From assembly GCF_013315695.1 (NCBI RefSeq), contig NZ_CP054353.1: a stretch of 64,000 nt of DNA, one strand, 5' to 3'. The translations under genes and the position numbers were made by a program. The stretch is from Escherichia coli (GTDB taxonomy: Bacteria > Pseudomonadota > Gammaproteobacteria > Enterobacterales > Enterobacteriaceae). Positions 8,694 through 51,753 of this stretch are shown piece after piece (position 1 is the first letter of the stretch; every line of letters begins with the position of its first letter). The notes beneath the pieces were generated by a model. The model searched no databases. It was given only the letters and a program-made list of their open reading frames with translations, and had not been told where the DNA came from.

Positions 8694-9391
8694 AGGGATT
8701 GCCAGTTAGCCGGCCAGGCGACATACAGGAATTTCACACTGGATGTCGTACCAAATTCGATGCTGGAGCCTTTCGGGATAAACATCACATCGCCTGCTTT
8801 GGCGATCATGGTTTCGCCTTCGTGGCGAACGTGCAGTTCCCCTTCCAGTACCATATCGATTTCGTCATAGTTGAGGGTCCACGGGAAGAAGGCGTTCTCC
8901 CACTGCATAAAACCGGCGGCCATGCTGCTGCCGTCGTCTCCGGTGACCAGATCCGTTAATCCGACGCAGTGTGGCTGTGCGCCGTCGAAACGACCAAACT
9001 TGACGCTGCTGCCATCAATCACTTTGATGCCGCCTTTGCCGGTCACCGATTTGAAGCTCGGCTGCATTGCACCCTGCTCCAGTGACTGTTTTTCCTTCAT
9101 CACTTTTTCCATCAGCTGCGCGACCAGGCTTTCGGTAAACTGGCCTTCCGGTAGCTGGGCGATGATGGTTTCGCGGATGCGCTGGCTTTCGGTTTTATCG
9201 GCTGGCACGCTGGCGGGAACGGACGTCGTTACCGCAGTCGATTCATCACATTCGGTGATGGTAAAACCCAACAGATCAGCCACTTCACGAGCTTCCGGGG
9301 TAATAATGCTGGCGCGCAGAACCACGGACATTGCCAGTTCGCCGCGCGCGTGTGCTTCACGAATATCATTCGCTGTGATGAGTTTTTTCAC
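8690..9391 (-). CDS. eutQ: EutQ (cupin-fold protein of the eut operon)
   Basis: 233-aa ORF, operon position, recognised sequence. Confidence 0.88.
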   Translation of the reverse strand: MKKLITANDIREAHARGELAMSVVLRASIITPEAREVADLLGFTITECDESTAVTTSVPASVPADKTESQRIRETIIAQLPEGQFTESLVAQLMEKVMKEKQSLEQGAMQPSFKSVTGKGGIKVIDGSSVKFGRFDGAQPHCVGLTDLVTGDDGSSMAAGFMQWENAFFPWTLNYDEIDMVLEGELHVRHEGETMIAKAGDVMFIPKGSSIEFGTTSSVKFLYVAWPANWQSL

Positions 9392-9845
9392 CTGCTTCCT
9401 CCTGTTTGGTGAGAGATGCCAGATAATCCACCAGTTGCTGCACGCTTTGCGGGTCGTGGCTGTTTAGCTCGAAAATCGGCTCTTCGAAGCCCGTCTCAAG
9501 CAATAACTTTCGCGTTGCGGCGACGTCAGCATCTGGCATGTCCGTTTTACTGATGACGGCGATTTGCCGTTTGCTGACGCCAATATCCAGCAACCCGGCA
9601 GGCAACCGACTTTCCGGGTCATTCGCGCCGTGGACATAGATCAGCATGTCCACATCCTGTAGCGTGGTAATTAAGGCGTGATACCAGCGGGGATGGCTAA
9701 AATATTCACCCGGCGTATCAATATCGCCCTTATCATTAAATTCCACGGCCTGTGTTTTTCTTGCGAGGGTATAATTCCCCTGCAACGCATTAAATAACGT
9801 TGTTTTTCCTGCCCCGACGGTACCCACAAACGCAATTCGTTTCAT
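9366..9845 (-). CDS. eutP: EutP (P-loop NTPase of the eut operon)
   Basis: 159-aa ORF with Walker A GTVGAGKTT; overlaps eutQ by 26 nt. Confidence 0.88.
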   Translation of the reverse strand: MKRIAFVGTVGAGKTTLFNALQGNYTLARKTQAVEFNDKGDIDTPGEYFSHPRWYHALITTLQDVDMLIYVHGANDPESRLPAGLLDIGVSKRQIAVISKTDMPDADVAATRKLLLETGFEEPIFELNSHDPQSVQQLVDYLASLTKQEEAGEKTHHSE

Positions 9846-9898: not shown

Positions 9899-10402
9899 TT
9901 ATTGATAGTGTTTTATGTTCAGATAATGCCCGATGACTTTGTCATGCAGCTCCACCGATTTTGAGAACGACAGCGACTTCCGTCCCAGCCGTGCCAGGTG
10001 CTGCCTCAGATTCAGGTTATGCCGCTCAATTCGCTGCGTATATCGCTTGCTGATTACGTGCAGCTTTCCCTTCAGGCGGGATTCATACAGCGGCCAGCCA
10101 TCCGTCATCCATATCACCACGTCAAAGGGTGACAGCAGGCTCATAAGACGCCCCAGCGTCGCCATAGTGCGTTCACCGAATACGTGCGCAACAACCGTCT
10201 TCCGGAGCCTGTCATACGCGTAAAACAGCCAGCGCTGGCGCGATTTAGCCCCGACATAGCCCCACTGTTCGTCCATTTCCGCGCAGACGATGACGTCACT
10301 GCCCGGCTGTATGCGCGAGGTTACCGACTGCGGCCTGAGTTTTTTAAGTGACGTAAAATCGTGTTGAGGCCAACGCCCATAATGCGGGCTGTTGCCCGGC
10401 AT
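9899..10402 (-). CDS. insB: IS1 transposase InsB reading frame (made as InsAB' fusion by -1 frameshift)
   Basis: 167-aa ORF ...[65 protein letters not shown]; A6C slippery run (minus strand, plus-strand T-run 10340-10345) in the insA/insB overlap. Confidence 0.93.
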
Positions 10403-10596
10403 CCAACGCCATTCATGGCCATATCAATGATTTTCTGGTGCGTACCGGGTTGAGAAGCGGTGTAAGTGAACTGCAGTTGCCATGTTTTACGGCAGTGAGA
10501 GCAGAGATAGCGCTGATGTCCGGCGGTGCTTTTGCCGTTACGCACCACCCCGTCAGTAGCTGAACAGGAGGGACAGCTGATAGAAACAGAAGCCAC
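10321..10596 (-). CDS. insA: IS1 InsA (transposition inhibitor / DNA-binding protein)
   Basis: 91-aa [46 protein letters not shown]... Confidence 0.95.
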
Positions 10597-10646: not shown

Positions 10647-10970
10647 TCACCCACAAAGCGTATAATTTAATAAGCGTCCTAAACCACTGACGGTTTGTGA
10701 TAACGCTTCTTCTACTGCGCCCACCGAGCCATAAATCACCAGCGCGCCGCTAAAACGGTCGAGAAAACCGATATGCACATCGGCGGCTTTCAACGCTAAA
10801 TCACCGGCGATCATCGCCGTTTCTCCGGGAGTTAGCGTCATAATGCCAATTGCGCCCGCATCCGGAACGCCGATTTTCTTCGCCAGTTCCTCGCCGGGAT
10901 GCGCGATGAGATGCGCCAGTGTGACCTGTTTACCGGGCACAAATTCCTGAATGATGCGTTCTTTATCCAT
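10647..10970 (-). CDS. eutS: Microcompartment shell protein EutS, 3' end altered by IS1 (ends ...NYTLCG; stop lies inside IS1)
   Basis: Starts [15 protein letters not shown]...; reading frame runs into the IS1 right end; deleting IS1 plus one TSD copy restores ...LCEMTKS followed by TAA (rc of 9858-9860). Confidence 0.85.
10652..10660. repeat. Right copy of 9-bp target-site duplication CACAAAGCG flanking IS1
   Basis: Identical to 9875-9883. Confidence 0.9.
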
Positions 10971-11335: not shown

Positions 11336-12406
11336 ATGAAAATTCACTACCTTGTCACCACTCTCGAAACGGGAGGCGCTGAATTTGCGATTCCTGATAT
11401 TGTGACTACTCTACAAGATCTTGGTCATGAGGTGAAAATTTATGTATGTGAACCCCGAGATATGGGCGCGGCACCGCGTCTGAAAGCGGCCGGTTTATCC
11501 TGGTGTTTATTATCAAATCGGCGGCGTTCTGTTCCAGTGCTTGTCGGTGCTTATCTGGCAAAAATCATTTACGACAAACCCGATCTCATCTGGACTTCGT
11601 TAAGTTGGGGGACGCGTATTGGACAATGGGGCGGCCGACTTATGGGCATTCCGGTTATCAGTTTTAAACATAGCGCCAGCGTAAAACCAGCAACCTGGCG
11701 TATGCGCAGCATGTCACGTTTATGGATTGGCGATTCTGCAACCGTAACTCAATACCTGCATGAAACCATGCGGATCCCGAAGCAACAAGTGATGTGCTGG
11801 CCTTTTTTTCAGGCTAATCCGCAAGCTGCTCAAGCGAAAAAGTGGGACGGGGTATCAGTTTTACAATTAGGCACCGTTGGTCGCCTGCATGAAGTTAAAA
11901 ATTACGCAGGATTAATTACTGCACTCGCTTCGTTTGTCGATAAAAACCCGCAATTGCGCTCGCGAATCCGACTAACCCTTCTCGGTGAGGGAGCCGAACA
12001 AGAGGTTTTGAAAAAGACCATAACACAACACGCCATGGAGGATGTAGTTTGTTTAGCGGGGTTTTCTGCGGATATCGAAAATTTTCTTGCCGGATTACAT
12101 GTCTATATCCAAACTTCCCGCTACGAAGGGATGTGCCTCGCCGCACACGAAGCCATGAATGCAGGGCTTGCGATCATTACGCCCCCTGTAGGTGAACTTA
12201 AAGAATCGGTAATTGATGGTCATACCGGCTATATACTTAATGGCGAACTAACTCCAGCACTGGAGGAAGTACTTAACCGTATTTTCAATGAACCCACAGA
12301 ATTACAACACTATGGGCAAAATGCGCGTCAGTATGTATTACAGAAATTCAGCCATGAAAATTTTGTCCAGTCTGCAATCAACATTGTTAATAGACTTATT
12401 CACTGA
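11336..12406 (+). CDS. Uncharacterised GT4-family (GT-B fold, Glycos_transf_1-like) glycosyltransferase, 356 aa, in an AT-rich segment
   Basis: N-terminal LETGGAEF...LGHEV motif and C-terminal E-X7-E motif (YEGMCLAAHEAMNAGLAIITPPVGELKESVIDGHTGYIL); about 42% GC over the first 120 nt by manual count; no counterpart in K-12 gene order as recalled. Confidence 0.8.
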   Translation: MKIHYLVTTLETGGAEFAIPDIVTTLQDLGHEVKIYVCEPRDMGAAPRLKAAGLSWCLLSNRRRSVPVLVGAYLAKIIYDKPDLIWTSLSWGTRIGQWGGRLMGIPVISFKHSASVKPATWRMRSMSRLWIGDSATVTQYLHETMRIPKQQVMCWPFFQANPQAAQAKKWDGVSVLQLGTVGRLHEVKNYAGLITALASFVDKNPQLRSRIRLTLLGEGAEQEVLKKTITQHAMEDVVCLAGFSADIENFLAGLHVYIQTSRYEGMCLAAHEAMNAGLAIITPPVGELKESVIDGHTGYILNGELTPALEEVLNRIFNEPTELQHYGQNARQYVLQKFSHENFVQSAINIVNRLIH

Positions 12407-37835: not shown

Positions 37836-38030
37836 TTACTTTGCTCCATTCCGTGCTGGCTGTGCTTGCGGCCAGCACACCTCACTTCTCGTGATCAAGA
37901 TCACATTCTCGCTTTCCCCTGCGACACGGGTGTCGAATCCATTTATTGCTGAACGTTAATGACCATCATTTTTGTACCGTTCAGAATCCAGTTAACACAT
38001 AAATTATTGAATATATTAAATTAATCAGAC

Positions 38031-38046
38031 TGGCATCCTTTATGCA
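38031..38046 (+). promoter_or_regulatory. Sigma-54 (-24/-12) promoter of the hyf operon
   Basis: TGGCATCCTTTATGCA: GG at 38032-33 and GC at 38044-45 with canonical spacing, about 40 bp upstream of hyfA ATG; consistent with a sigma-54 activator (HyfR) encoded in the operon. Confidence 0.65.
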
Positions 38047-38087: not shown

Positions 38088-38705
38088 ATGAACCGCTTTG
38101 TGGTGGCCGAACCACTGTGGTGTACAGGATGTAATACCTGTCTCGCTGCCTGTTCGGACGTGCATAAAACGCAAGGTTTACAGCAACACCCGCGCCTGGC
38201 CCTGGCGAAGACGTCAACACTCACTGCCCCTGTCGTGTGTCATCACTGTGAGGAAGCCCCTTGCCTGCAGGTCTGCCCGGTCAATGCCATCTCCCAGAGG
38301 GATGATGCGATCCAACTCAACGAAAGCCTTTGTATTGGTTGCAAGCTTTGCGCCGTGGTCTGCCCATTTGGCGCAATCAGCGCTTCAGGAAGCCGTCCGG
38401 TGAATGCCCCTGCGCAATATGTTTTTCAGGCTGAGGGCTCACTCAAAGACGGCGAAGAAAACGTGTCGACCCAACATGCTTTGCTGCGCTGGGAACCGGG
38501 TGTCCAGACCGTCGCGGTGAAATGCGACCTGTGTGATTTCTTGCCAGAAGGTCCGGCCTGCGTTCGCGCTTGTCCGAATCAGGCGTTACGGCTGATCACC
38601 GACGATAGCCTGCAACGTCAGATGAAAGAAAAACAGCGCCTTGCCGCAAGCTGGTTTGCCAATGGCGGGGAGGATCCCCTTTCCCTCACTCAGGAGCAAC
38701 GCTAA
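38088..38705 (+). CDS. hyfA: Hydrogenase-4 component A, 4Fe-4S ferredoxin-type subunit
   Basis: 205-aa product MNRFVVAEPLWCTGCNTC... with several CxxCxxCxxxCP motifs; GGAG SD. Confidence 0.92.
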   Translation: MNRFVVAEPLWCTGCNTCLAACSDVHKTQGLQQHPRLALAKTSTLTAPVVCHHCEEAPCLQVCPVNAISQRDDAIQLNESLCIGCKLCAVVCPFGAISASGSRPVNAPAQYVFQAEGSLKDGEENVSTQHALLRWEPGVQTVAVKCDLCDFLPEGPACVRACPNQALRLITDDSLQRQMKEKQRLAASWFANGGEDPLSLTQEQR

Positions 38706-40723
38706 TGGATGCCCTGCAATTATTAACCTGGTCGCTGATCCTCTATCTGTTTGCCAGTCTGGCTTCGCTGTTTTTACTCGGTCTGGACAGACTGGCTATT
38801 AAGCTTTCCGGCATCACATCGCTGGTGGGCGGCGCGATTGGCATCATCAGCGGAATTACGCAATTACATGCAGGCGTAACTTTAGTCGCCCGTTTTGCCA
38901 CACCTTTTGAATTTGCCGATTTAACCCTGCGAATGGATAGCCTCTCGGCATTTATGGTGCTGGTTATCTCCTTGCTGGTGGTGTTTTGTTCGCTCTATTC
39001 ATTGACTTATATGCGCGAATACGAGGGTAAAGGCGCGGCGGCGATGGGCTTCTTTATGAATCTTTTCATCGCATCGATGGTTGCCCTGCTGGTGATGGAC
39101 AACGCTTTTTGGTTCATCGTGCTGTTTGAAATGATGTCGCTGTCTTCCTGGTTTCTGGTCATTGCCAGGCAGGATAAAACGTCGATCAACGCTGGCATGC
39201 TCTACTTTTTTATCGCCCACGCCGGATCGGTGCTGATTATGATCGCCTTCTTGCTGATGGGGCGCGAAAGCGGCAGCCTCGATTTTGCCAGTTTCCGCAC
39301 GCATTCACTTTCTCCGGGGCTGGCGTCGGCGGTGTTCCTGCTGGCCTTCTTCGGTTTTGGCGCGAAAGCCGGGATGATGCCGTTGCACAGCTGGTTGCCG
39401 CGCGCTCACCCTGCCGCACCATCGCACGCTTCGGCGTTGATGTCTGGCGTAATGGTCAAAATCGGTATTTTCGGCATCCTTAAAGTAGCGATGGATCTGC
39501 TGGCGCAAACGGGTTTGCCGCTGTGGTGGGGCATTCTGGTGATGGCGATCGGCGCAATCTCCGCGCTCCTGGGCGTGCTGTATGCGCTGGCGGAACAGGA
39601 TATCAAACGGCTGCTGGCCTGGAGTACCGTCGAAAACGTCGGCATTATTTTGCTGGCGGTCGGTGTGGCGATGGTCGGTCTGTCACTGCACGACCCGCTG
39701 CTCACCGTTGTTGGACTGCTCGGCGCGCTGTTTCATCTGCTCAACCATGCGCTGTTCAAAGGGCTGCTGTTTCTCGGCGCGGGTGCGATTATTTCGCGTT
39801 TGCATACCCACGACATGGAAAAAATGGGGGCACTGGCGAAACGTATGCCGTGGACAGCCGCAGCATGCCTGATTGGTTGCCTCGCGATATCAGCCATTCC
39901 TCCGCTGAATGGTTTTATCAGCGAATGGTACACCTGGCAGTCGCTGTTCTCACTAAGTCGTGTGGAAGCCGTAGCGCTACAACTTGCGGGTCCTATTGCT
40001 ATGGTGATGCTGGCAGTCACTGGTGGGCTGGCAGTAATGTGCTTCGTCAAAATGTACGGTATTACTTTCTGTGGAGCGCCGCGCAGTACACACGCTGAAG
40101 AGGCACAGGAAGTGCCAAATACGATGATCGTCGCCATGCTACTGCTCGCGGCACTCTGCGTATTCATTGCGCTTAGTGCCAGTTGGCTGGCACCGAAGAT
40201 AATGCACATTGCCCATGCGTTTACCAATACCCCTCCCGTCACTGTCGCCAGCGGAATAGCACTTGTACCCGGCACGTTTCATACACGGGTCACTCCCTCA
40301 TTACTGTTGCTGTTACTACTGGCGATGCCTTTGCTGCCTGGCCTTTACTGGCTGTGGTGTCGTTCGCGCCGCGCAGCGTTTCGTCGCACAGGAGATGCCT
40401 GGGCATGCGGCTACGGCTGGGATAATGCGATGGCCCCGTCAGGCAATGGCGTGATGCAGCCGCTGCGTGTGGTCTTTTGTGCGCTATTTCGTCTACGACA
40501 ACAGCTCGACCCTACGCTGAGGCTGAACAAAGGTCTTGCGCACGTCACCGCCAGGGCTCAGAGCACAGAACCCTTCTGGGATGAGCGGGTGATCCGCCCC
40601 ATCGTGAGCGCCACCCAACGGCTGGCCAAAGAAATACAGCATCTGCAAAGCGGCGACTTTCGTCTCTATTGCCTGTATGTGGTCGCCGCACTGGTTGTGC
40701 TGCTAATCGCTATTGCCGTCTAA
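38705..40723 (+). CDS. hyfB: Hydrogenase-4 membrane subunit B (NuoL/Mrp antiporter-like)
   Basis: 672-aa polytopic ORF. Confidence 0.92.
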   Translation: MDALQLLTWSLILYLFASLASLFLLGLDRLAIKLSGITSLVGGAIGIISGITQLHAGVTLVARFATPFEFADLTLRMDSLSAFMVLVISLLVVFCSLYSLTYMREYEGKGAAAMGFFMNLFIASMVALLVMDNAFWFIVLFEMMSLSSWFLVIARQDKTSINAGMLYFFIAHAGSVLIMIAFLLMGRESGSLDFASFRTHSLSPGLASAVFLLAFFGFGAKAGMMPLHSWLPRAHPAAPSHASALMSGVMVKIGIFGILKVAMDLLAQTGLPLWWGILVMAIGAISALLGVLYALAEQDIKRLLAWSTVENVGIILLAVGVAMVGLSLHDPLLTVVGLLGALFHLLNHALFKGLLFLGAGAIISRLHTHDMEKMGALAKRMPWTAAACLIGCLAISAIPPLNGFISEWYTWQSLFSLSRVEAVALQLAGPIAMVMLAVTGGLAVMCFVKMYGITFCGAPRSTHAEEAQEVPNTMIVAMLLLAALCVFIALSASWLAPKIMHIAHAFTNTPPVTVASGIALVPGTFHTRVTPSLLLLLLLAMPLLPGLYWLWCRSRRAAFRRTGDAWACGYGWDNAMAPSGNGVMQPLRVVFCALFRLRQQLDPTLRLNKGLAHVTARAQSTEPFWDERVIRPIVSATQRLAKEIQHLQSGDFRLYCLYVVAALVVLLIAIAV

Positions 40724-40733
40724 GGAAATCACC

Positions 40734-41681
40734 ATGAGACAAACTCTTTGCGACGGATATCTGATCATTTTTGCGTTAGCACAGGCCGTGATTCTGCTGG
40801 CGCTAACCCCGCTTTTTACGGGGATTTCCCGGCAGATACGCGCGCGAATGCACTCCCGTCGCGGACCGGGGATCTGGCAGGATTATCGCGATATCCACAA
40901 ACTGTTTAAACGCCAGGAAGTTGCGCCGACATCTTCAGGTCTGATGTTCCGCCTGATGCCGTGGGTATTAATCAGCAGCATGCTGGTGCTGGCGATGGCC
41001 CTACCACTATTTATTACCGTTTCCCCTTTTGCGGGCGGCGGCGATCTGATCACCCTTATCTATCTTCTTGCCCTGTTTCGTTTTTTCTTTGCTCTTTCCG
41101 GGCTGGATACCGGAAGCCCGTTTGCGGGAGTCGGTGCCAGTCGCGAGTTGACGCTCGGCATTCTGGTCGAACCCATGCTCATTCTCTCACTGCTGGTATT
41201 GGCGCTGATAGCGGATTCCACGCATATCGAGATGATCAGCAAGACGCTGGCGACGGGCTGGAACTCGCCGCTAACCACCGTACTGGCGTTACTGGCCTGT
41301 GGTTTTGCCTGCTTCATTGAGATGGGAAAAATTCCCTTTGATGTTGCTGAAGCAGAACAGGAATTACAGGAAGGCCCGCTGACCGAATATTCCGGTGCCG
41401 GGCTGGCGCTGGCGAAGTTGGGGCTGGGGCTGAAACAGGTCGTGATGGCATCACTGTTTGTGGCCCTGTTTCTGCCCTTTGGGCGCGCGCAAGAACTTTC
41501 TCTCGCCTGCCTGCTGACTTCACTTGTCGTTACGCTGCTCAAGGTTTTGCTGATTTTTGTACTGGCCTCAATCGCAGAAAACACGCTGGCACGCGGGCGT
41601 TTTTTACTCATTCACCATGTGACCTGGCTTGGCTTCAGCCTTGCTGCGCTTGCCTGGGTCTTCTGGTTAACCGGTCTGTAA
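40734..41681 (+). CDS. hyfC: Hydrogenase-4 membrane subunit C (NuoH-like)
   Basis: 315-aa product from ATG 40734 (MRQTLCDGYLIIFALAQ...). Confidence 0.9.
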   Translation: MRQTLCDGYLIIFALAQAVILLALTPLFTGISRQIRARMHSRRGPGIWQDYRDIHKLFKRQEVAPTSSGLMFRLMPWVLISSMLVLAMALPLFITVSPFAGGGDLITLIYLLALFRFFFALSGLDTGSPFAGVGASRELTLGILVEPMLILSLLVLALIADSTHIEMISKTLATGWNSPLTTVLALLACGFACFIEMGKIPFDVAEAEQELQEGPLTEYSGAGLALAKLGLGLKQVVMASLFVALFLPFGRAQELSLACLLTSLVVTLLKVLLIFVLASIAENTLARGRFLLIHHVTWLGFSLAALAWVFWLTGL

Positions 41682-41697
41682 GGAGCACTGACGGAAT

Positions 41698-43137
41698 ATG
41701 GAAAATCTTGCTCTGACGACGTTATTGCTGCCTTTTATCGGCGCACTGGTCGTTTCGTTTTCGCCACAACGTCGGGCCGCCGAATGGGGGATTTTGTTCG
41801 CCGCGCTGACCACGCTGTGCATGTTGTCGCTGATCTCCGCGTTTTATCAGGCCGATAAAGTTGCCGTCACGTTAACGTTGGTCCACGTGGGGGATGTGGC
41901 GTTGTTTGGCCTGGTCATTGATCGCGTGAGTACGCTGATTCTGTTTGTGGTGGTGTTCCTCGGTTTGCTGGTCACGATCTACTCCACGGGTTATCTGACG
42001 GATAAAAATCGCGAACACCCGCATAACGGCACGAATCGTTATTACGCATTTTTGCTGGTTTTTATCGGCGCGATGGCGGGACTGGTACTCTCCTCGACGC
42101 TGCTCGGTCAGTTGTTGTTTTTTGAAATTACGGGCGGCTGCTCCTGGGCGTTGATCAGTTATTACCAGAGCGATAAAGCGCAGCGTTCAGCACTAAAAGC
42201 GTTACTTATCACTCATATCGGTTCGCTGGGGTTGTATCTTGCCGCCGCCACGCTGTTTTTGCAGACCGGAACGTTTGCGCTCAGCGCTATGAGCGAGTTA
42301 CACGGCGACGCACGTTATCTGGTTTATGGCGGCATCCTGTTTGCCGCGTGGGGGAAATCGGCCCAGCTACCGATGCAAGCGTGGCTACCGGATGCAATGG
42401 AAGCGCCAACACCGATCAGCGCCTATCTCCACGCCGCATCGATGGTGAAAGTGGGCGTTTACATTTTTGCCCGTGCCATTATCGACGGCGGCAATATCCC
42501 GCATGTGATTGGCGGCGTTGGCATGGTTATGGCACTGGTCACCATTCTTTACGGCTTCCTGATGTATTTGCCACAGCAGGATATGAAGCGGTTGCTGGCC
42601 TGGTCGACCATCACTCAACTTGGCTGGATGTTTTTCGGCTTGTCGCTCTCCATCTTCGGCTCGCGACTGGCGCTGGAGGGCAGCATCGCCTACATCGTCA
42701 ACCACGCGTTCGCTAAAAGCCTATTTTTCCTTGTAGCAGGTGCGCTGAGTTACAGCTGCGGCACGCGCTTGTTGCCGCGTCTGCGTGGCGTATTGCACAC
42801 CCTGCCGTTGCCAGGCGTGGGTTTCTGCGTAGCCGCGCTGGCGATTACTGGCGTACCGCCGTTCAACGGCTTCTTCAGTAAATTCCCGCTGTTTGCTGCC
42901 GGTTTTTCGTTGTCAGTGGAGTACTGGATCCTGCTGCCCGCCATGATTCTGCTGATGATTGAATCGGTCGCCAGTTTCGCCTGGTTTATTCGCTGGTTTG
43001 GTCGCGTCGTGCCTGGCAAACCGAGCGAGGCCGTCGCCGATGCCGCACCGCTGCCAGGATCAATGCGCCTGGTGTTGATTGTACTGATTGTGATGTCGCT
43101 GATTTCCAGCGTAATCGCCGCGACCTGGTTGCAGTAA
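41698..43137 (+). CDS. hyfD: Hydrogenase-4 membrane subunit D (antiporter-like)
   Basis: 479-aa polytopic ORF. Confidence 0.92.
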   Translation: MENLALTTLLLPFIGALVVSFSPQRRAAEWGILFAALTTLCMLSLISAFYQADKVAVTLTLVHVGDVALFGLVIDRVSTLILFVVVFLGLLVTIYSTGYLTDKNREHPHNGTNRYYAFLLVFIGAMAGLVLSSTLLGQLLFFEITGGCSWALISYYQSDKAQRSALKALLITHIGSLGLYLAAATLFLQTGTFALSAMSELHGDARYLVYGGILFAAWGKSAQLPMQAWLPDAMEAPTPISAYLHAASMVKVGVYIFARAIIDGGNIPHVIGGVGMVMALVTILYGFLMYLPQQDMKRLLAWSTITQLGWMFFGLSLSIFGSRLALEGSIAYIVNHAFAKSLFFLVAGALSYSCGTRLLPRLRGVLHTLPLPGVGFCVAALAITGVPPFNGFFSKFPLFAAGFSLSVEYWILLPAMILLMIESVASFAWFIRWFGRVVPGKPSEAVADAAPLPGSMRLVLIVLIVMSLISSVIAATWLQ

Positions 43138-43148
43138 GGAGATGATGA

Positions 43149-43799
43149 ATGACCGGTTCTATGATCGTAAATAATCTGGCGGGACTGATGATGCTGACAT
43201 CGCTGTTTGTGATTAGCGTCAAAAGCTATCGCCTGTCATGCGGATTTTACGCCTGCCAGTCGCTGGTGCTGGTGTCTATTTTCGCCACTCTCTCGTGTCT
43301 GTTCGTCGCAGAGCAACTGCTGATCTGGTCCGCCAGCGCCTTTATCACCAAAGTGCTGCTGGTACCGTTAATCATGATTTACGCTGCACGAAATATTCCC
43401 CAGAACATCCCGGAAAAAGCGTTATTCGGTCCGGCAATGATGGCATTGCTCGCGGCATTAATTGTCCTGCTTTGCGCATTTGTCGTTCAGTCCGTGAAGC
43501 TACCGATGGCTACCGGGCTGAAACCGGCGCTGGCGGTGGCGTTAGGTCATTTTCTGCTTGGCCTGCTGTGCATTGTCAGCCAGCGCAATATCCTGCGGCA
43601 AATTTTTGGTTACTGCCTGATGGAAAACGGCTCCCATCTGGTGCTGGCGCTTCTAGCCTGGCGTGCACCGGAACTGGTGGAAATTGGTATCGCTACCGAC
43701 GCCATCTTCGCCGTCATTGTGATGGTGTTACTGGCAAGAAAAATATGGCGTACCCACGGCACGCTGGACGTGAACAACTTGACCGCGCTGAAGGGATAA
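43149..43799 (+). CDS. hyfE: Hydrogenase-4 membrane subunit E
   Basis: 216-aa hydrophobic ORF. Confidence 0.9.
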
Positions 43800-43803
43800 T
43801 GAG

Positions 43804-45384
43804 ATGAGTTATTCTGTGATGTTCGCTTTACTCCTGCTCACGCCGCTGCTTTTTTCGCTGCTCTGTTTTGCCTGCCGGAAACGGGGGCACTCTCCGACTC
43901 GCGCGGTGACAGTATTACATAGCTTAGGGATCACACTGCTGCTGATTCTGGCACTCTGGGTGGTCCAAACTGCCGCTGATGCGGGAGAAATATTCGCTGC
44001 GGGACTGTGGCTTCATATTGATGGTCTGGGCGGTTTGTTCCTCGCCATTCTTGGTGTGATTGGCTTTCTCACCGGTGTTTACTCGATTGGCTACATGCGT
44101 CATAAAGTGGAGCACGGCGAGCTTTCACCCGTTACGCTGTGCGATTACTACGGTTTCTTCCATCTGTTTTTGTTCACCATGCTGCTGGTTGTTACCAGCA
44201 ATAACCTGATTGTGATGTGGGCGGCGATCGAAGCCACCACCTTAAGCTCGGCGTTTCTGGTAGGCATTTACGGTCAGCGTTCATCGCTGGAAGCTGCATG
44301 GAAGTACATCATTATTTGTACTGTTGGTGTCGCTTTTGGTCTGTTCGGTACCGTGCTGGTATACGCCAACGCCGCCAGCGTTATGCCGCAGGCAGAAATG
44401 GCGATATTCTGGAGCGAGGTTCTTAAGCAATCGTCCTTGCTTGACCCAACATTAATGCTGTTGGCCTTTGTGTTTGTGCTAATTGGCTTTGGCACTAAAA
44501 CCGGGCTATTCCCCATGCACGCCTGGCTGCCAGATGCTCACAGTGAAGCGCCGAGTCCGGTCAGCGCCCTGCTCTCCGCCGTATTGCTGAACTGCGCGCT
44601 GTTGGTGCTTATTCGCTATTACATCATTATTTGCCAGGCCATCGGCAGCGATTTCCCCAACCGGTTGTTGCTCATCTTCGGCATGTTGTCGGTTGCCGTG
44701 GCGGCATTTTTCATTCTGGTACAGCGGGACATTAAGCGTCTGCTGGCGTACTCCAGCGTGGAGAACATGGGACTGGTCGCGGTGGCGCTAGGCATTGGCG
44801 GGCCGCTGGGAATTTTTGCTGCGCTGCTGCACACCTTAAACCACAGTCTGGCAAAAACGCTGCTGTTCTGCGGTTCCGGCAATGTACTGCTCAAGTACGG
44901 CACGCGCGATCTCAACGTCGTCTGCGGAATGCTCAAAATCATGCCATTTACCGCCGTGCTGTTTGGCGGCGGTGCGCTGGCGCTGGCCGGGATGCCGCCC
45001 TTCAACATTTTTCTTAGCGAATTTATGACCGTTACCGCCGGACTGGCGCGTAATCACCTGCTGATTATCGTCCTGCTGTTATTGCTGTTAACGCTGGTGC
45101 TGGCGGGCCTGGTACGGATGGCTGCGCGGGTGTTAATGGCGAAACCGCCGCAGGCCGTTAACCGGGGTGAACTTGGCTGGTTGACCACCTCGCCAATGGT
45201 GATTCTGCTGGTCATGATGCTGGCGATGGGAACGCATATTCCACAACCTGTCATCAGGATCCTGGCGGGCGCTTCCACTATAGTCCTCTCAGGGACGCAC
45301 GACCTGCCTGCACAACGTAGCACCTGGCATGATTTTTTGCCTTCAGGCACCGCATCTGTTTCGGAGAAACACAGTGAACGTTAA
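43804..45384 (+). CDS. hyfF: Hydrogenase-4 membrane subunit F (antiporter-like)
   Basis: 526-aa polytopic ORF. Confidence 0.92.
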
Positions 45385-47089
45385 TTCATCGTCAAATCGT
45401 GGCGAAGCGATTCTCGCCGCCCTGAAAACGCAGTTCCCCGGCGCGGTGCTGGATGAAGAGCGACAAACGCCTGAACAGGTCACCATTACGGTGAAAATAA
45501 ATCTGCTGCCTGACGTTGTACATTATCTTTATTATCAACATGATGGCTGGCTTCCGGTCCTGTTTGGCAACGACGAGCGGACACTTAACGGTCATTACGC
45601 GGTTTATTATGCCCTTTCAATGGAAGGGGCCGAAAAATGCTGGATCGTGGTGAAGGCACTGGTCGATGCCGACAGTCGGGAGTTTCCGTCAGTCACACCG
45701 CGCGTCCCTGCCGCGGTCTGGGGCGAGCGAGAAATTCGCGATATGTACGGGTTGATTCCGGTTGGCCTGCCGGATCAGCGTCGGCTGGTGTTGCCCGATG
45801 ACTGGCCGGAAGATATGCATCCGCTGCGCAAAGACGCGATGGATTATCGACTGCGCCCAGAACCGACGACTGATACCGAAACGTATCCGTTTATCAACGA
45901 GGGCAACAGCGATGCGCGGGTGATCCCTGTCGGCCCGCTGCATATCACCTCCGATGAACCAGGTCACTTCCGCTTGTTTGTGGATGGCGAGCAAATTGTC
46001 GATGCTGATTACCGCCTGTTTTATGTCCATCGCGGCATGGAGAAACTGGCAGAAACGCGGATGGGCTACAACGAAGTGACCTTCTTGTCGGACCGCGTGT
46101 GTGGGATTTGCGGTTTTGCCCACAGTGTGGCCTATACCAACTCGGTTGAAAATGCACTGGGGATTGAGGTGCCGCAACGAGCGCATACTATTCGCTCGAT
46201 TCTGCTGGAAGTCGAACGGCTGCATAGTCATTTGCTCAACCTTGGCCTCTCCTGCCATTTTGTTGGTTTTGATACCGGCTTTATGCAATTTTTCCGCGTG
46301 CGGGAAAAGTCGATGACGATGGCGGAATTGCTGACCGGGTCGCGTAAAACCTACGGTCTGAATCTGATTGGTGGTGTTCGCCGCGATATTCTCAAAGAGC
46401 AACGTCTGCAAACGCTGAAACTGGTGCGCGAGATGCGTGCCGACGTGTCGGAGCTGGTAGAGATGCTGCTTGCCACGCCGAATATGGAACAACGCACTCA
46501 GGGCATTGGCATTCTCGACCGACAAATCGCCCGTGATTATAGCCCCGTAGGGCCGCTGATCCGCGGCAGTGGTTTTGCCCGTGATTTGCGCTTTGATCAC
46601 CCCTACGCCGACTACGGCAATATTCCCAAAACGCTGTTTACCTTTACCGGCGGCGATGTCTTCTCCCGCGTGATGGTCCGTGTCAAAGAGACGTTTGATT
46701 CGCTGGCAATGCTGGAATTTGCCCTCGACAACATGCCGGATACCCCACTGCTGACCGAAGGCTTTAGCTATAAACCTCACGCATTCGCGCTGGGCTTTGT
46801 TGAAGCGCCACGCGGTGAAGACGTGCACTGGAGCATGCTCGGTGATAACCAAAAATTGTTCCGCTGGCGCTGTCGTGCCGCCACCTACGCCAACTGGCCA
46901 GTGCTGCGTTACATGCTGCGCGGCAATACCGTTTCTGACGCACCGCTGATTATCGGTAGCCTTGATCCCTGTTACTCCTGTACCGACCGTGTGACGCTGG
47001 TTGATGTGCGCAAGCGCCAGTCAAAAACCGTGCCGTATAAAGAGATCGAACGCTACGGCATTGATCGTAACCGTTCGCCGCTGAAGTAA
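45374..47089 (+). CDS. hyfG: Hydrogenase-4 [NiFe] large subunit HyfG (HycE-like); start codon uncertain (GTG proposed)
   Basis: N-terminal CxxC (RVCGICG) and C-terminal DPCYSCTDR Ni-binding motifs; GTG 45374 preceded by GGAGA; overlaps hyfF 3' end. Confidence 0.85.
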
Positions 47090-47098
47090 GGACAGAAA

Positions 47099-47644
47099 AT
47101 GCTGAAGTTACTGAAAACTATTATGCGCGCCGGAACCGCGACGGTGAAATATCCCTTCGCGCCACTGGAGGTCAGCCCAGGCTTTCGCGGGAAACCGGAC
47201 CTGATGCCCAGCCAATGTATTGCCTGCGGTGCCTGCGCCTGTGCTTGTCCGGCAAATGCGCTGACTATCCAGACCGACGACCAGCAAAATACGCGCACCT
47301 GGCAGCTCTATCTGGGGCGTTGTATTTACTGCGGACGTTGTGAAGAAGTGTGCCCGACCAGAGCCATTCAGCTTACCAATAACTTTGAACTGACCGTCAC
47401 CAATAAAGCCGATCTCTATACCCGCGCGACGTTCCATCTACAACGTTGCAGCCGTTGCGAACGCCCGTTTGCCCCGCAAAAAACCGTCGCACTGGCTGCA
47501 GAACTGTTGGCACAGCAACAAAATGCACCACAAAACCGCGAAATGTTACGGGCGCAAGCGAGCGTCTGCCCGGAATGCAAACAACGCGCGACGCTGATCA
47601 ACGACGACACAAATGAACCGCTGGTGGCTAAGGAGCAGCTATGA
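47099..47644 (+). CDS. hyfH: Hydrogenase-4 Fe-S subunit H (NuoI-like, two 4Fe-4S)
   Basis: 181-aa ORF with [12 protein letters not shown] and [12 protein letters not shown] motifs. Confidence 0.92.
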
Positions 47645-48399
47645 GTCCAGTGCTTACGCAACATGTCAGCCAGCCCATTACGCTGGACGAGCAAACGCAA
47701 AAGATGAAGCAGCATTTGCTACAGGATATCCGTCGCTCGGCTTACGTTTATCGCGTCGATTGCGGCGGCTGTAACGCCTGCGAAATCGAAATTTTTGCTG
47801 CCATCACACCCGTATTCGACGCAGAACGTTTTGGCATTAAGGTTGTTTCATCACCGCGTCACGCCGATATTTTGTTATTTACTGGCGCAGTCACCCGGGC
47901 GATGCGTATGCCTGCACTTCGGGCATATGAGTCTGCCCCCGATCATAAAATCTGTGTTTCCTACGGCGCGTGCGGTGTCGGCGGCGGTATTTTCCACGAT
48001 CTTTACAGCGTCTGGGGCGGCAGCGACACCATTGTCCCCATTGATGTTTGGATCCCCGGCTGCCCGCCAACACCGGTCGCCACCATTCACGGTTTCGCCG
48101 TGGCGCTCGGTTTGCTGCAACAGAAGATTCACGCGGTGGATTATCGCGATCCCACCGGGGTGACCATGCAACCGCTGTGGCCGCAGATCCCGCCATCACA
48201 GCGTATCGCCATTGAGCGAGAAGCGAGGCGGTTGGCGGGCTATCGTCAGGGGCGAGAAATTTGCGATCGGCTCCTGCGCCATTTAAGCGACGATCCTACA
48301 GGAAATCGGGTTAACACCTGGTTGCGCGAAGCTGACGATCCACGTCTCAATAGTATCGTTCAGCAACTCTTTCGCGTTCTCCGGGGGTTACATGGCTGA
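47641..48399 (+). CDS. hyfI: Hydrogenase-4 small subunit I (NuoB-like)
   Basis: 252-aa ORF; ATGA overlap with hyfH. Confidence 0.92.
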
Positions 48400-48805
48400 G
48401 GCGTGCGGGGAAATTGTTTTCTGGACGCTGCGAAAAAAGTTTGTCGCCAGTAGCGACGAGATGCCGGAACACAGCTCTCAGGTAATGTATTACTCGCTGG
48501 CTATCGGCCATCACGTTGGCGTGATTGATTGTCTGAATGTCGCCTTCCGCTGCCCACTGACGGAATACGAAGATTGGCTTGCACTGGTCGAAGAGGAGCA
48601 AGCCCGACGTAAGATGCTGGGGGTGATGACTTTTGGTGAGATTGTTATTGACGCCAGCCACACCGCCCTGTTGACCCGGGCATTCGCGCCAGTGGCAGAT
48701 GACGCGACGTCGGCGTGGCAGGCGCGTAGCATTCAATTCATTCATCTGTTGGATGAAATTGTGCAGGAACCGGCCATCTATCTGATGGCCAGAAAAATTG
48801 CGTGA
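48392..48805 (+). CDS. hyfJ: HyfJ (HycH-like hydrogenase assembly/maturation factor)
   Basis: 137-aa ORF, operon position. Confidence 0.88.
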
Positions 48806-48834
48806 GAAGGATTTCTCATTAATAAGGACTGTTG

Positions 48835-50847
48835 ATGGCTATGTCAGACGAGGCGATGTTTGCCCCGCCGCAAGGAATAACAATTGAAGCGGTAAACGGA
48901 ATGCTCGCGGAGCGGTTAGCGCAGAAACACGGCAAGGCGTCTTTATTACGCGCCTTCATCCCGCTGCCGCCGCCGTTCAGCCCGGTACAACTTATTGAAC
49001 TGCATGTTCTCAAAAGCAACTTCTATTACCGCTACCATGATGATGGCAGCGATGTGACGGCAACAACAGAGTATCAGGGTGAGATGGTCGATTATTCGCG
49101 CCACGCCGTCCTTCTCGGCAGTAGTGGAATGGCGGAGCTACGCTTTATTCGCACTCACGGCAGCCGTTTTACTCCCCAGGATTGCACACTGTTTAACTGG
49201 CTGGCACACATAATCACTCCGGTTCTGCAATCATGGCTCAATGATGAAGAACAGCAGGTGGCGCTGCGTTTGCTGGAGAAAGATCGCGATCATCATCGGG
49301 TACTGGTGGATATCACTAATGCAGTGTTGTCACATCTTGATCTCGACGATCTGATCGCTGACGTCGCTCGTGAGATCCATCATTTTTTCGGTCTGGCTTC
49401 AGTCAGTATGGTACTGGGCGATCATCGAAAGAACGAGAAGTTCAGCCTGTGGTGCAGCGATCTTTCTGCCTCACATTGTGCGTGTCTGCCACGCTGTATG
49501 CCTGGCGAAAGTGTATTGCTGACACAAACGCTACAAACCCGACAACCGACCTTGACGCACCGTGCAGACGATCTGTTTCTCTGGCAACGCGACCCGTTAT
49601 TACACTTACTTGCATCTAACGGCTGCGAATCTGCGCTCCTTATACCGCTCACCTTTGGCAACCATACACCGGGTGCATTGTTGCTGGCGCATACCTCTTC
49701 CACTCTCTTTAGTGAGGAAAACTGCCAGCTACTACAACATATTGCCGATCGCATCGCTATTGCCGTTGGCAATGCCGATGCCTGGCGTAGCATGACCGAT
49801 TTGCAGGAAAGCTTGCAGCAAGAAAACCACCAGCTTAGCGAGCAGCTCCTTTCGAATCTGGGCGTCGGTGACATTATCTATCAAAGCCAGGCAATGGAAG
49901 ATTTGCTCCAGCAGGTAGATATTGTGGCGAAGAGCGACAGTACGGTGTTGATTTGTGGTGAAACCGGAACCGGCAAAGAGGTGATCGCCAGAGCGATCCA
50001 TCAACTTAGCCCACGACGCGACAAGCCACTGGTCAAAATCAACTGCGCTGCCATCCCCGCCAGTCTTCTGGAAAGTGAGTTATTCGGTCATGACAAAGGG
50101 GCATTTACTGGTGCGATTAATACCCATCGTGGTCGTTTTGAAATTGCCGATGGCGGCACGTTGTTTCTCGATGAAATTGGCGATCTGCCGTTAGAACTTC
50201 AGCCTAAACTGCTGCGCGTATTGCAGGAACGGGAGATTGAGCGTCTCGGCGGGAGTAGAACGATCCCGGTAAATGTCAGAGTCATTGCCGCCACCAACCG
50301 TGATTTGTGGCAAATGGTTGAAGATCGCCAGTTTCGCAGCGATCTCTTTTATCGCCTGAATGTCTTCCCACTGGAACTGCCGCCACTGCGCGACCGTCCG
50401 GAAGATATCCCTCTTTTAGCAAAGCATTTCACGCAAAAAATGGCGCGCCATATGAATCGCGCAATTGACGCCATCCCGACCGAGGCGCTACGCCAGTTGA
50501 TGTCGTGGGACTGGCCGGGCAACGTGCGCGAGCTGGAAAACGTGATTGAGCGAGCGGTACTACTGACTCGCGGTAACAGTCTGAATTTACATCTTAATGT
50601 CCGACAAAGCCGTTTACTGCCGACGCTAAATGAAGATTCAGCGCTTCGCAGTTCAATGGTGCAGTTGCTGCACCCGACGACGCCAGAGAATGACGAAGAA
50701 GAACGTCAGCGCATTGTTCAGGTATTGCGAGAAACCAATGGCATTGTTGCCGGGCCCCGTGGCGCGGCGACGCGATTAGGGATGAAGCGCACCACGCTGC
50801 TGTCACGAATGCAGCGTCTGGGGATCTCGGTTCGCGAGGTGTTGTAA
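48835..50847 (+). CDS. hyfR: Sigma-54-dependent transcriptional activator HyfR (FhlA-like)
   Basis: 670-aa product MAMSDEAMF...; GAF region, AAA+ sigma-54 interaction domain ([14 protein letters not shown]), C-terminal HTH. Confidence 0.93.
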
Positions 50848-50868
50848 TCTGCTTTTGCAGGAGTATTC

Positions 50869-51717
50869 ATGAGAAACAAACTCTCTTTCGACTTGCAGTT
50901 GAGCGCCAGAAAAGCGGCAATCGCTGAACGGATTGCCGCCCATAAAATTGCCCGCAGCAAAGTGTCGGTCTTTTTAATGGCGATGTCCGCAGGTGTGTTT
51001 ATGGCGATCGGATTTACTTTTTACCTTACCGTTATCGCCGATGCCCCGTCTTCACAGGCATTAACCCATCTGGTGGGAGGCCTTTGCTTTACACTCGGCT
51101 TTATTTTGCTGGCGGTTTGCGGCACCAGCCTGTTCACCTCGTCGGTAATGACGGTGATGGCAAAAAGTCGGGGCGTTATTAGTTGGCGAACATGGCTGAT
51201 TAACGCACTTCTGGTGGCCTGCGGTAATCTGGCAGGTATTGCCTGTTTCAGTTTGTTAATCTGGTTTTCCGGGCTGGTGATGAGTGAAAACGCGATGTGG
51301 GGAGTCGCGGTTTTACACTGCGCCGAGGGCAAAATGCATCATACATTTACTGAATCAGTCAGCCTCGGCATTATGTGCAATGTGATGGTTTGCCTGGCGC
51401 TGTGGATGAGTTATTGCGGACGTTCGTTATGCGACAAAATCGTCGCCATGATTTTGCCCATCACCCTGTTTGTCGCCAGTGGCTTTGAGCACTGTATCGC
51501 CAATTTGTTTGTGATTCCGTTCGCCATTGCCATTCGCCATTTCGCCCCTACCTCCTTCTGGCAACTGGCGCACAGTAGCGCAGACCATTTTCCGGCACTG
51601 ACGGTCAGCCATTTTATTACCGCCAATCTGCTCCCGGTGATGCTGGGTAATATTATCGGCGGTGCAGTGCTGGTGAGTATTTGTTATCGGGCTATTTATT
51701 TACGTCAGGAACCCTAA
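50869..51717 (+). CDS. focB: Formate channel FocB (FNT family)
   Basis: 282-aa polytopic ORF, FNT family. Confidence 0.92.
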   Translation: MRNKLSFDLQLSARKAAIAERIAAHKIARSKVSVFLMAMSAGVFMAIGFTFYLTVIADAPSSQALTHLVGGLCFTLGFILLAVCGTSLFTSSVMTVMAKSRGVISWRTWLINALLVACGNLAGIACFSLLIWFSGLVMSENAMWGVAVLHCAEGKMHHTFTESVSLGIMCNVMVCLALWMSYCGRSLCDKIVAMILPITLFVASGFEHCIANLFVIPFAIAIRHFAPTSFWQLAHSSADHFPALTVSHFITANLLPVMLGNIIGGAVLVSICYRAIYLRQEP

Positions 51718-51753
51718 AAATCAGCCCGGCGAAACAGTTCGTCGGGCTGAAGA

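Follow-up and report, generated by a model that had tools for sequence, protein, structure and literature searches.

The hydrogenase-4 (Hyd-4; formate hydrogenlyase 2, FHL-2) of Escherichia coli has been called a 'long-standing mystery' by Lindenstrauss and Pinske (bioRxiv 10.1101/563510). In K-12, Hyd-4 produced no H2 even after promoter swaps (Phyc, T5) or a HyfG-HycE tail fusion, and the authors blamed 'unknown biosynthetic problems' for the inactivity (PMC7654741). Is the hyf operon of K-12 a sound standard for the species? We addressed this question with a 64,000-nucleotide stretch of E. coli DNA (NCBI RefSeq contig NZ_CP054353.1; hereafter the window), which carries the hyfABCDEFGHIJR-focB locus at 38088-51717. 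Sequence comparisons make it very probable that this operon is intact and ancestral, that the K-12 hyfG allele is a derived deletion, and that most E. coli hyf operons are lesioned.

The hyf operon of the window is complete

The locus consists of twelve uninterrupted open reading frames (ORFs) on the + strand with no internal stops, and their coordinates equal those of the RefSeq annotation of hyfA-J, hyfR and focB in E. coli MSB1_4I. The MSB1_4I record has 0 mismatches to the window across 19.6 kb at hyf and 1 mismatch across the upstream 38 kb. All of the genes (12/12) encode the expected Pfam domains, and the locus is flanked by bcp and yfgO, as in K-12. A first-pass annotation, made from the sequence alone, had named the 12-gene hyfABCDEFGHIJR-focB locus, an assignment supported by the ORFs, the MSB1_4I identity and the Pfam matches.

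The same gene order is found in a Kosakonia genome ('Enterobacter sp. R4-368', CP005991.1), in which the operon lies between bamC-dapA-gcvR-bcp and yfgO-bepA-arsC-hda-uraA, the same chromosomal site as in E. coli. The Kosakonia proteins are 54-88% identical to those of the window, with 1-3-residue indels in the structural subunits and lengths within 1-6 residues, except for HyfR, whose N-terminus is 21 residues shorter. The absence of frameshifts and insertions, also asserted in the first pass, agrees with the stop-free ORFs and their collinearity with the Kosakonia operon. The locus is a complete, vertically inherited hyfABCDEFGHIJR-focB in its ancestral form. As a sequence it is already known, because public records carry it annotated, with identical copies in RefSeq. 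The earlier judgment that nothing here is novel thus stands for the locus sequence, but not for K-12 as the intact reference or for intactness as the default state.

K-12 HyfG lacks a conserved 16-residue segment

The K-12 hyf locus (b2481-b2492) has the same 12 genes, order, site (bcp / hyf / yfgO) and promoter region as the window, with ~98% nucleotide identity. The pairwise protein alignment with K-12, which had been proposed as a check for frameshifts, revealed none: eleven proteins are equal in length, with 3-12 substitutions each. HyfG, however, has 571 a.a. in the window and 555 a.a. in K-12, where residues 386-401 (16 codons) are missing. The corresponding DNA is as follows.

46529..46576, + strand: 48 bp GCCCGTGATTATAGCCCCGTAGGGCCGCTGATCCGCGGCAGTGGTTTT missing from K-12 hyfG, encoding HyfG residues 386-401

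A 10-bp direct repeat, GCCCGTGATT, borders the 48 bp (46529-46538 and 46577-46586), which is a signature of deletion by slippage or illegitimate recombination. With a hyfG 48 bp shorter than that of the window, K-12 cannot serve as the yardstick for an intact operon.

Among the 120 best HyfG homologues, the gap is restricted to six E. coli/Shigella-type entries, which are either 96-100% identical or truncated or fused calls. The segment is present in the homologues from Enterobacter, Yokenella, Atlantibacter, Serratia, Proteus, Morganella, Providencia, Pectobacterium, Brenneria, Dickeya, Sodalis, Gilliamella and Shewanella; the Pectobacterium betavasculorum HyfG, which represents its genus among the matches, has all 16 residues, like the window. 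An alignment of 51 sequences shows no variation at 10 of the 16 positions. In Pfam, Complex1_49kDa matches the window HyfG with 170.7 bits and the K-12 protein with 129.6 bits, and against the syntenic Kosakonia operon the K-12 gap is the sole large internal gap in the structural subunits. The polarity thus appears clear from these alignments, with the K-12 hyfG allele as the derived deletion.

The segment aligns without gaps to the solved structures of HycE (ARDFSNVGPMVRASGH), Pyrococcus MbhL, Thermus Nqo4, mitochondrial ND7 and MbsL, all of which keep an R-x-[ST]-G motif. HyfG R397, which is lost from the K-12 protein, is the equivalent of HycE Arg395. Together with His284 and Glu437, HycE Arg395 was assigned to a putative pathway of proton transfer, which terminates at the canopy residues and is conserved across formate hydrogenlyases, membrane-bound hydrogenases, soluble hydrogenases and complex I (PMC9474812). 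Therefore, K-12 HyfG is without one catalysis-assigned residue and its 15 neighbours in a highly conserved loop, and the deletion would be expected to disable the K-12 enzyme. An AlphaFold2 model of the window HyfG, built from the 51-sequence alignment, was discarded (mean predicted local distance difference test score, pLDDT, 64.7; residues 391-396 below 50); as it was too poor to place the segment, we relied on the paper describing the solved HycE structure.

HyfG in the window is 72% identical to HycE (7Z0S) and carries D194/E195, C243/C246, S285/H286, R397, E439, R480, D531, C533/C536 and R539, which match every catalytic and proton-pathway residue of HycE named in the FHL structure paper (PMC9474812). 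Both Ni-Fe cysteine pairs, C243/C246 and C533/C536 (within DPCYSCTDR), are retained, as the first pass had noticed. The HyfG tail extends 32 residues beyond R539, as does that of HycE beyond R537. The hyf locus contains no protease gene, and the C-terminal processing of HyfG is assumed to be performed by HycI, encoded elsewhere.

Two 740-a.a. database proteins with 96% identity to HyfG are calls in which HyfG and HyfH are fused. Both have the 16-residue gap as well, and a lost hyfG stop codon in some E. coli presumably explains the fusions.

Most hyf operons in E. coli are absent or broken

We evaluated how common the two hyfG alleles and other lesions are in 5426 complete RefSeq E. coli genomes. 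The lesions were defined from annotated loci and our own alignments, and were counted by junction-specific queries of 42-44 nt, which are unable to seed on the intact allele; their overlap with it is 27 nt at most, and for validation they matched the expected sample loci only. Besides the hyfG deletion, ten lesions were counted: frameshifts in hyfB, hyfD, hyfF, hyfH and hyfI, 208- and 216-bp deletions in hyfD, and the nonsense changes hyfF S210* and hyfR E336*. Lesions confined to hyfD or hyfF may spare H2 evolution, because HyfDEF is dispensable for H2 production in Pectobacterium (PMC7384014), so the union of core-subunit lesions was computed separately.

hyf present: 4298 genomes
hyf absent: 1128 genomes
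Full-length hyfG segment: 2179 genomes
K-12 hyfG deletion junction: 2113 genomes
hyfB 1-bp frameshift: 1264 genomes
hyfI 1-bp frameshift: 684 genomes
Union of the ten non-hyfG lesions: 2332 genomes
Union including the 48-bp deletion: 3099 genomes
Union of core-subunit lesions (hyfG, hyfB, hyfI, hyfH): 2867 genomes

The 48-bp deletion, found in about half of the hyf-bearing genomes, occurs with another lesion in 1346 genomes and, as in K-12, without any of the ten others in 767; a further 986 genomes combine a full-length hyfG with another lesion. At least 72% of the hyf-bearing complete genomes thus carry the 48-bp deletion or another inherited lesion, and at most ~1200 genomes (22% of all; 28% of carriers) could match the intactness of the window, a generous bound because focB tract frameshifts, insertion sequence (IS) insertions and unsampled lesions are left out of it. 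Overall, about 78% of complete E. coli genomes have no hyf, carry the hyfG deletion or have an operon broken in another way. Of this, the open-access papers surveyed record only that phylogroup B2 is without hyf (PMC2617782, PMC6896753) and that hyfA is frameshifted in one super-shedder strain of O157 (PMC4321836). In a non-random sample of 18 annotated loci, only those of MSB1_4I, O157:H7 DEC4E, deer isolate 48 and 118UI are fully intact with a full-length hyfG.

In window coordinates, lesions of other strains map to 39295 (hyfB), 41791, 42073 and 42455 (hyfD), 44431 (hyfF) and 47988 (hyfI). The pseudogene alleles are mosaic: the hyfI frameshift accompanies a full-length hyfG in some genomes and a deleted one in others, and the 208-bp hyfD deletion is found in both C11 and NCTC9113, indicating recombination among decaying hyf haplotypes. 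Assembly error was considered as a source of the shared 1-bp lesions and rejected, since identical alleles with identical linked single-nucleotide polymorphisms (SNPs) occur in hundreds of genomes. In focB at ~51540-51560, the window reads CCCCTACCTCC, where several strains have an unbroken C5-C7 tract and +1/-1 frameshifts. For ETEC4090 and swine B2, alignment confirmed the tract frameshift; B4103-1 and FXCREC004 have a frameshift somewhere in focB. The C-tract may be prone to slippage, or its indels may be assembly noise, and they were kept out of the counts for this reason.

Decay is also seen in a close relative of this strain. The blood-culture isolate AF3, a clone-mate with an otherwise 100% identical hyf, has an IS1A in hyfD (NZ_OZ547117.1, 4134-4831; ~42200 in the window), and hyf knock-out is thus ongoing within this clone.

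The hyfG deletion probably arose once

All sampled deletion carriers (K-12, ST167, ETEC4090, O26, O111 and NCTC9113) have in common a SNP-free block of ~0.9 kb around the junction (46141-47059 in the window), whereas they differ by ~10 SNPs/kb elsewhere in hyf. The shared block together with the divergence outside it indicates that the 48-bp deletion probably had a single origin and then spread via recombination. The ratio of nonsynonymous to synonymous substitution rates (dN/dS) is 0.10-0.12 between intact lineages versus 0.15-0.21 among broken ones in pairwise comparisons, and ~0.11 over 4490 codons. These values indicate past purifying selection on the proteins and suggest, though not decisively, that it is modestly relaxed where the operon is broken.

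Gene set and relation to known formate hydrogenlyases

The genes of the window operon and the sequence directly downstream are as follows.

38088..38705, + strand: hyfA, 205-a.a. poly-ferredoxin, HycB-like; Fer4 family matches; K-12 length with 5 substitutions
38705..40723, + strand: hyfB, 672-a.a. antiporter-like membrane subunit, HycC-like; PF00361, 1.2e-53
40734..41681, + strand: hyfC, 315-a.a. ND1/HycD-like membrane anchor; PF00146 (NADHdh), 3e-58
41698..43137, + strand: hyfD, 479-a.a. antiporter-like subunit; PF00361, 2.7e-54
43149..43799, + strand: hyfE, 216 a.a., with an ND4L-like C-terminal half; PF00420 (Oxidored_q2)
43804..45384, + strand: hyfF, 526-a.a. antiporter-like subunit; PF00361, 1.2e-55
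45374..47089, + strand: hyfG, 571-a.a. [NiFe] large subunit, NuoC-NuoD-like fusion, full-length ancestral allele; PF00329 (Complex1_30kDa), PF00374 (NiFeSe_Hases) and PF00346 (Complex1_49kDa)
47099..47644, + strand: hyfH, 181-a.a. 2x[4Fe-4S] ferredoxin, HycF-like; Fer4 matches
47641..48399, + strand: hyfI, 252-a.a. small subunit, NuoB/HycG-like; PF01058 (Oxidored_q6)
48392..48805, + strand: hyfJ, 137-a.a. HycH-like assembly protein; PF07450, 8e-57
48835..50847, + strand: hyfR, 670-a.a. sigma-54-dependent activator, FhlA-like; GAF and AAA+ domains, PF00158 (Sigma54_activat), 4.8e-75
50869..51717, + strand: focB, 282-a.a. channel of the formate/nitrite transporter family; PF01226 (Form_Nir_trans), 3.2e-64, residues 20-273
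51721..51750, no strand assigned: hairpin, 13-bp stem including 8 G-C pairs, in the interval separating the convergent genes focB and yfgO; candidate bidirectional terminator

Neighbouring genes overlap at hyfA/B (1 nt), hyfF/G (11 nt, with a GTG start), hyfH/I (4 nt) and hyfI/J (8 nt). The first-pass annotation had listed the last three of these, missed hyfA/B, and included hyfB/C, which is not an overlap: hyfB stops at 40723 and the hyfC ATG at 40734 follows its own AGGA, leaving a 10-nt gap, and the apparent overlap arises solely from a mechanical TTG ORF starting at 40713.

By Pfam, the membrane arm set is complete, with the ND1-like HyfC, the antiporter-like HyfB, HyfD and HyfF, and HyfE; the small subunit HyfI and the ferredoxin-type HyfH and HyfA are all present as well. 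The three antiporter-like subunits recognized in the first pass each match PF00361 (Proton_antipo_M), and HyfE has been described as the marker, or distinguishing, subunit of FHL-2 (bioRxiv 10.1101/563510). The sequence features of the gene set are those of a predicted group 4a [NiFe]-hydrogenase FHL-2 (Hyf).

In comparison with formate hydrogenlyase 1 (FHL-1, hycABCDEFGHI; 7Z0S, 7Z0T), HyfA, HyfB, HyfC, HyfH, HyfI and HyfJ are paralogous to HycB, HycC, HycD, HycF, HycG and HycH, respectively. The hyf operon adds HyfD, HyfE and HyfF (two antiporter-like subunits and an ND4L-like one), the activator HyfR and the channel FocB, but has neither a HycA-like regulator nor a HycI-like protease. The FHL-2 operons (hyfA-K) of Pectobacterium atrosepticum and Trabulsiella guamensis encode the same HyfA-J subunit set, and both enzymes evolve H2 from formate (PMC7384014; bioRxiv 10.1101/563510). 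These two operons also encode the endopeptidase HyfK, and that of T. guamensis is without focB, whereas the E. coli operon has no hyfK but does include focB. Formate-dependent H2 evolution with FdhF has not been demonstrated for any E. coli hyf (PMC7654741; bioRxiv 10.1101/563510).

By homology to the FHL-1 structure and to active FHL-2, HyfG and HyfI would form the catalytic core as the large and small subunits. Electrons would pass from FdhF, encoded elsewhere, through HyfA, HyfH and HyfI to the NiFe site of HyfG. The core would be seated on a membrane arm composed of the ND1-like HyfC, the antiporter-like HyfB, HyfD and HyfF, and HyfE. HyfJ would aid assembly, FocB would serve as a formate conduit, and maturation would depend on the hyp products and the HycI protease, both encoded outside the locus. 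Transcription would be started by HyfR/FhlA together with a sigma-54 promoter upstream of hyfA.

In Yokenella regensburgei, hyfA-J adjoins hyp, hycI and ascBFG, where E. coli has hyc.

Candidate regulatory elements upstream of hyfA

Two elements lie upstream of hyfA.

37922..37935, + strand: perfect palindrome CGACACGGGTGTCG, ~150 nt 5' of hyfA; candidate HyfR/FhlA upstream activator site
38031..38046, + strand: candidate sigma-54 -24/-12 element TGGCAT-N5-ATGCA, TGGCATCCTTTATGCA, 42 nt 5' of the hyfA ATG; pattern match with 2 mismatches

The palindrome is unchanged in 13/13 aligned strains, and its role as an activator site is suggested by inference only. In the -24/-12 element, one -24 base is altered in PT62 alone among the same 13 strains, and the -12 part is invariant. 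A sigma-54 motif scan of the window gave no enrichment over shuffled sequences (49 matches versus 46.5 expected), so the promoter call depends on position and conservation, and the position suggests a possible function. The enhancer-binding domains of HyfR (PF00158, GAF) and the candidate -24/-12 element fit an operon of the sigma-54/FhlA family. We found no sigma-70-like promoter match upstream of hyfA.

Neighbouring sequence

The first-pass annotation had contrasted hyf with an interrupted eut operon, which proved correct: an IS1A transposase gene (~9899-10596, - strand) lies between eutS (~10647-10970) and eutP (~9366-9845), as placed from the annotation of a record with a single-base difference to the window over 38 kb. 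This intergenic IS1A possibly has a polar effect on eut. In the same near-identical record, a glycosyltransferase family 4 gene (~11336-12406, + strand) lies between maeB and eutS.

Implications for the inactivity of K-12 hydrogenase-4

A foreign hyf operon from Trabulsiella was active in a K-12 chassis with the E. coli FdhF (bioRxiv 10.1101/563510), indicating that the defect lies in K-12's own operon. The 16-residue deletion in HyfG may be the cause, and is in any case a candidate for it. In the open-access literature, we found no mention of a deletion in K-12 hyfG or of species-wide pseudogenization of hyf, although the deletion may be noted elsewhere. For the window operon, we regard it as established that the genes are intact with the expected domains, that no catalytic residue is missing, that synteny is kept and that purifying selection has acted; the complex is predicted to be made and to evolve H2, and we put the chances of an active enzyme at about even. 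Its hydrogenase-4 is potentially competent, which places this strain in a minority of at most ~22% of complete genomes. Tentatively, and at somewhat less than even chances, we extend this to the proposal that Hyd-4 inactivity is largely a K-12 artefact, and that this strain, O157:H7 and other lesion-free strains encode an active, possibly energy-conserving FHL-2. If so, restoring the 48 bp in K-12, or transplanting the operon of the window, would switch the enzyme on.

Several observations weigh against the overall reading given here. Expression of hyf in K-12 is poor and its promoter region has been called silent there (bioRxiv 10.1101/563510; PMC7654741), the sigma-54 element is kept in broken and intact operons alike, and both expression and activity of hyf in this strain are predictions. 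E. coli hyf has no endopeptidase gene of its own, unlike the active Pectobacterium and Trabulsiella operons. Even within this lineage, the IS1A in hyfD of AF3 suggests that the operon is under weak selection, dN/dS in the broken lineages is just modestly above that in the intact ones, and the 767 genomes with the deletion and none of the ten other lesions mean that post-deletion decay is not universal. In addition, Hyd-4-dependent phenotypes of K-12 hyf mutants have been reported, for example in PMC10758574; if these reports hold, losing the 16 residues does not inactivate the enzyme completely.

The operon could instead be intact yet cryptic, with no meaningful natural expression, which would make this strain physiologically equivalent to K-12. 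Such crypticity would suit the reported silence of hyf, whose expression and activity have not been directly demonstrated in E. coli (bioRxiv 10.1101/563510; PMC7654741), as well as the near-identical promoter regions of K-12 and the window, the absence of a sigma-70-like promoter upstream of hyfA, and the repeated loss or breakage of hyf across the species. Nevertheless, we consider it somewhat unlikely, since the dN/dS of ~0.11 over the 4490 codons points to long-term purifying selection on the proteins, the shared chromosomal site in Kosakonia implies that the operon has been kept since before the genera split, and the experiments calling hyf silent were all performed in K-12, that is, with the deleted hyfG.

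A neutral length polymorphism in hyfG, with the K-12 inactivity stemming from expression, HycI maturation or assay conditions, seems unlikely to us. The segment is among the most conserved of the protein, it is missing only from E. coli/Shigella-type entries among the best 120 homologues and from no solved superfamily member that we examined, it holds the arginine assigned to the conserved proton pathway, and 64% of the deletion carriers (1346/2113) have further lesions. Neutrality would, on the other hand, explain why the deletion is in frame, spares both cysteine pairs and the cleavage site, has reached a frequency of 2113 genomes, and stands without any of the ten other lesions in 767 of them; it would also accommodate the H2 phenotypes of K-12 hyfG mutants reported by some laboratories (PMC10758574).

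That the species-wide decay is an artefact of long-read errors and the junction-query method, with most hyf operons intact, is very improbable: many 'frameshifted' calls do occur in some sampled assemblies (PT62, KTa005), and homopolymer indels such as those in the focB C-tract could be typical long-read errors, but those tract indels were excluded, the counted lesions lie outside long homopolymers and include deletions of 48, 208 and 216 bp as well as nonsense substitutions and inserted IS elements, the exact alleles recur with the same linked SNPs in unrelated assemblies across hundreds to thousands of genomes, and the queries, with their limited overlap with the intact allele, matched the expected sample loci only.

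Taken together, the comparison with K-12 yields a concrete and cheaply testable candidate cause for the inactivity of its hydrogenase-4, along with natural strains that have a complete operon. Hyd-4 (FHL-2) is of interest as a proposed coupling of formate-driven H2 production to ion translocation, with an evolutionary link to complex I. That an intact hyf operon is a minority state in E. coli bears on the ecological role of hyf and on the choice of model strain.

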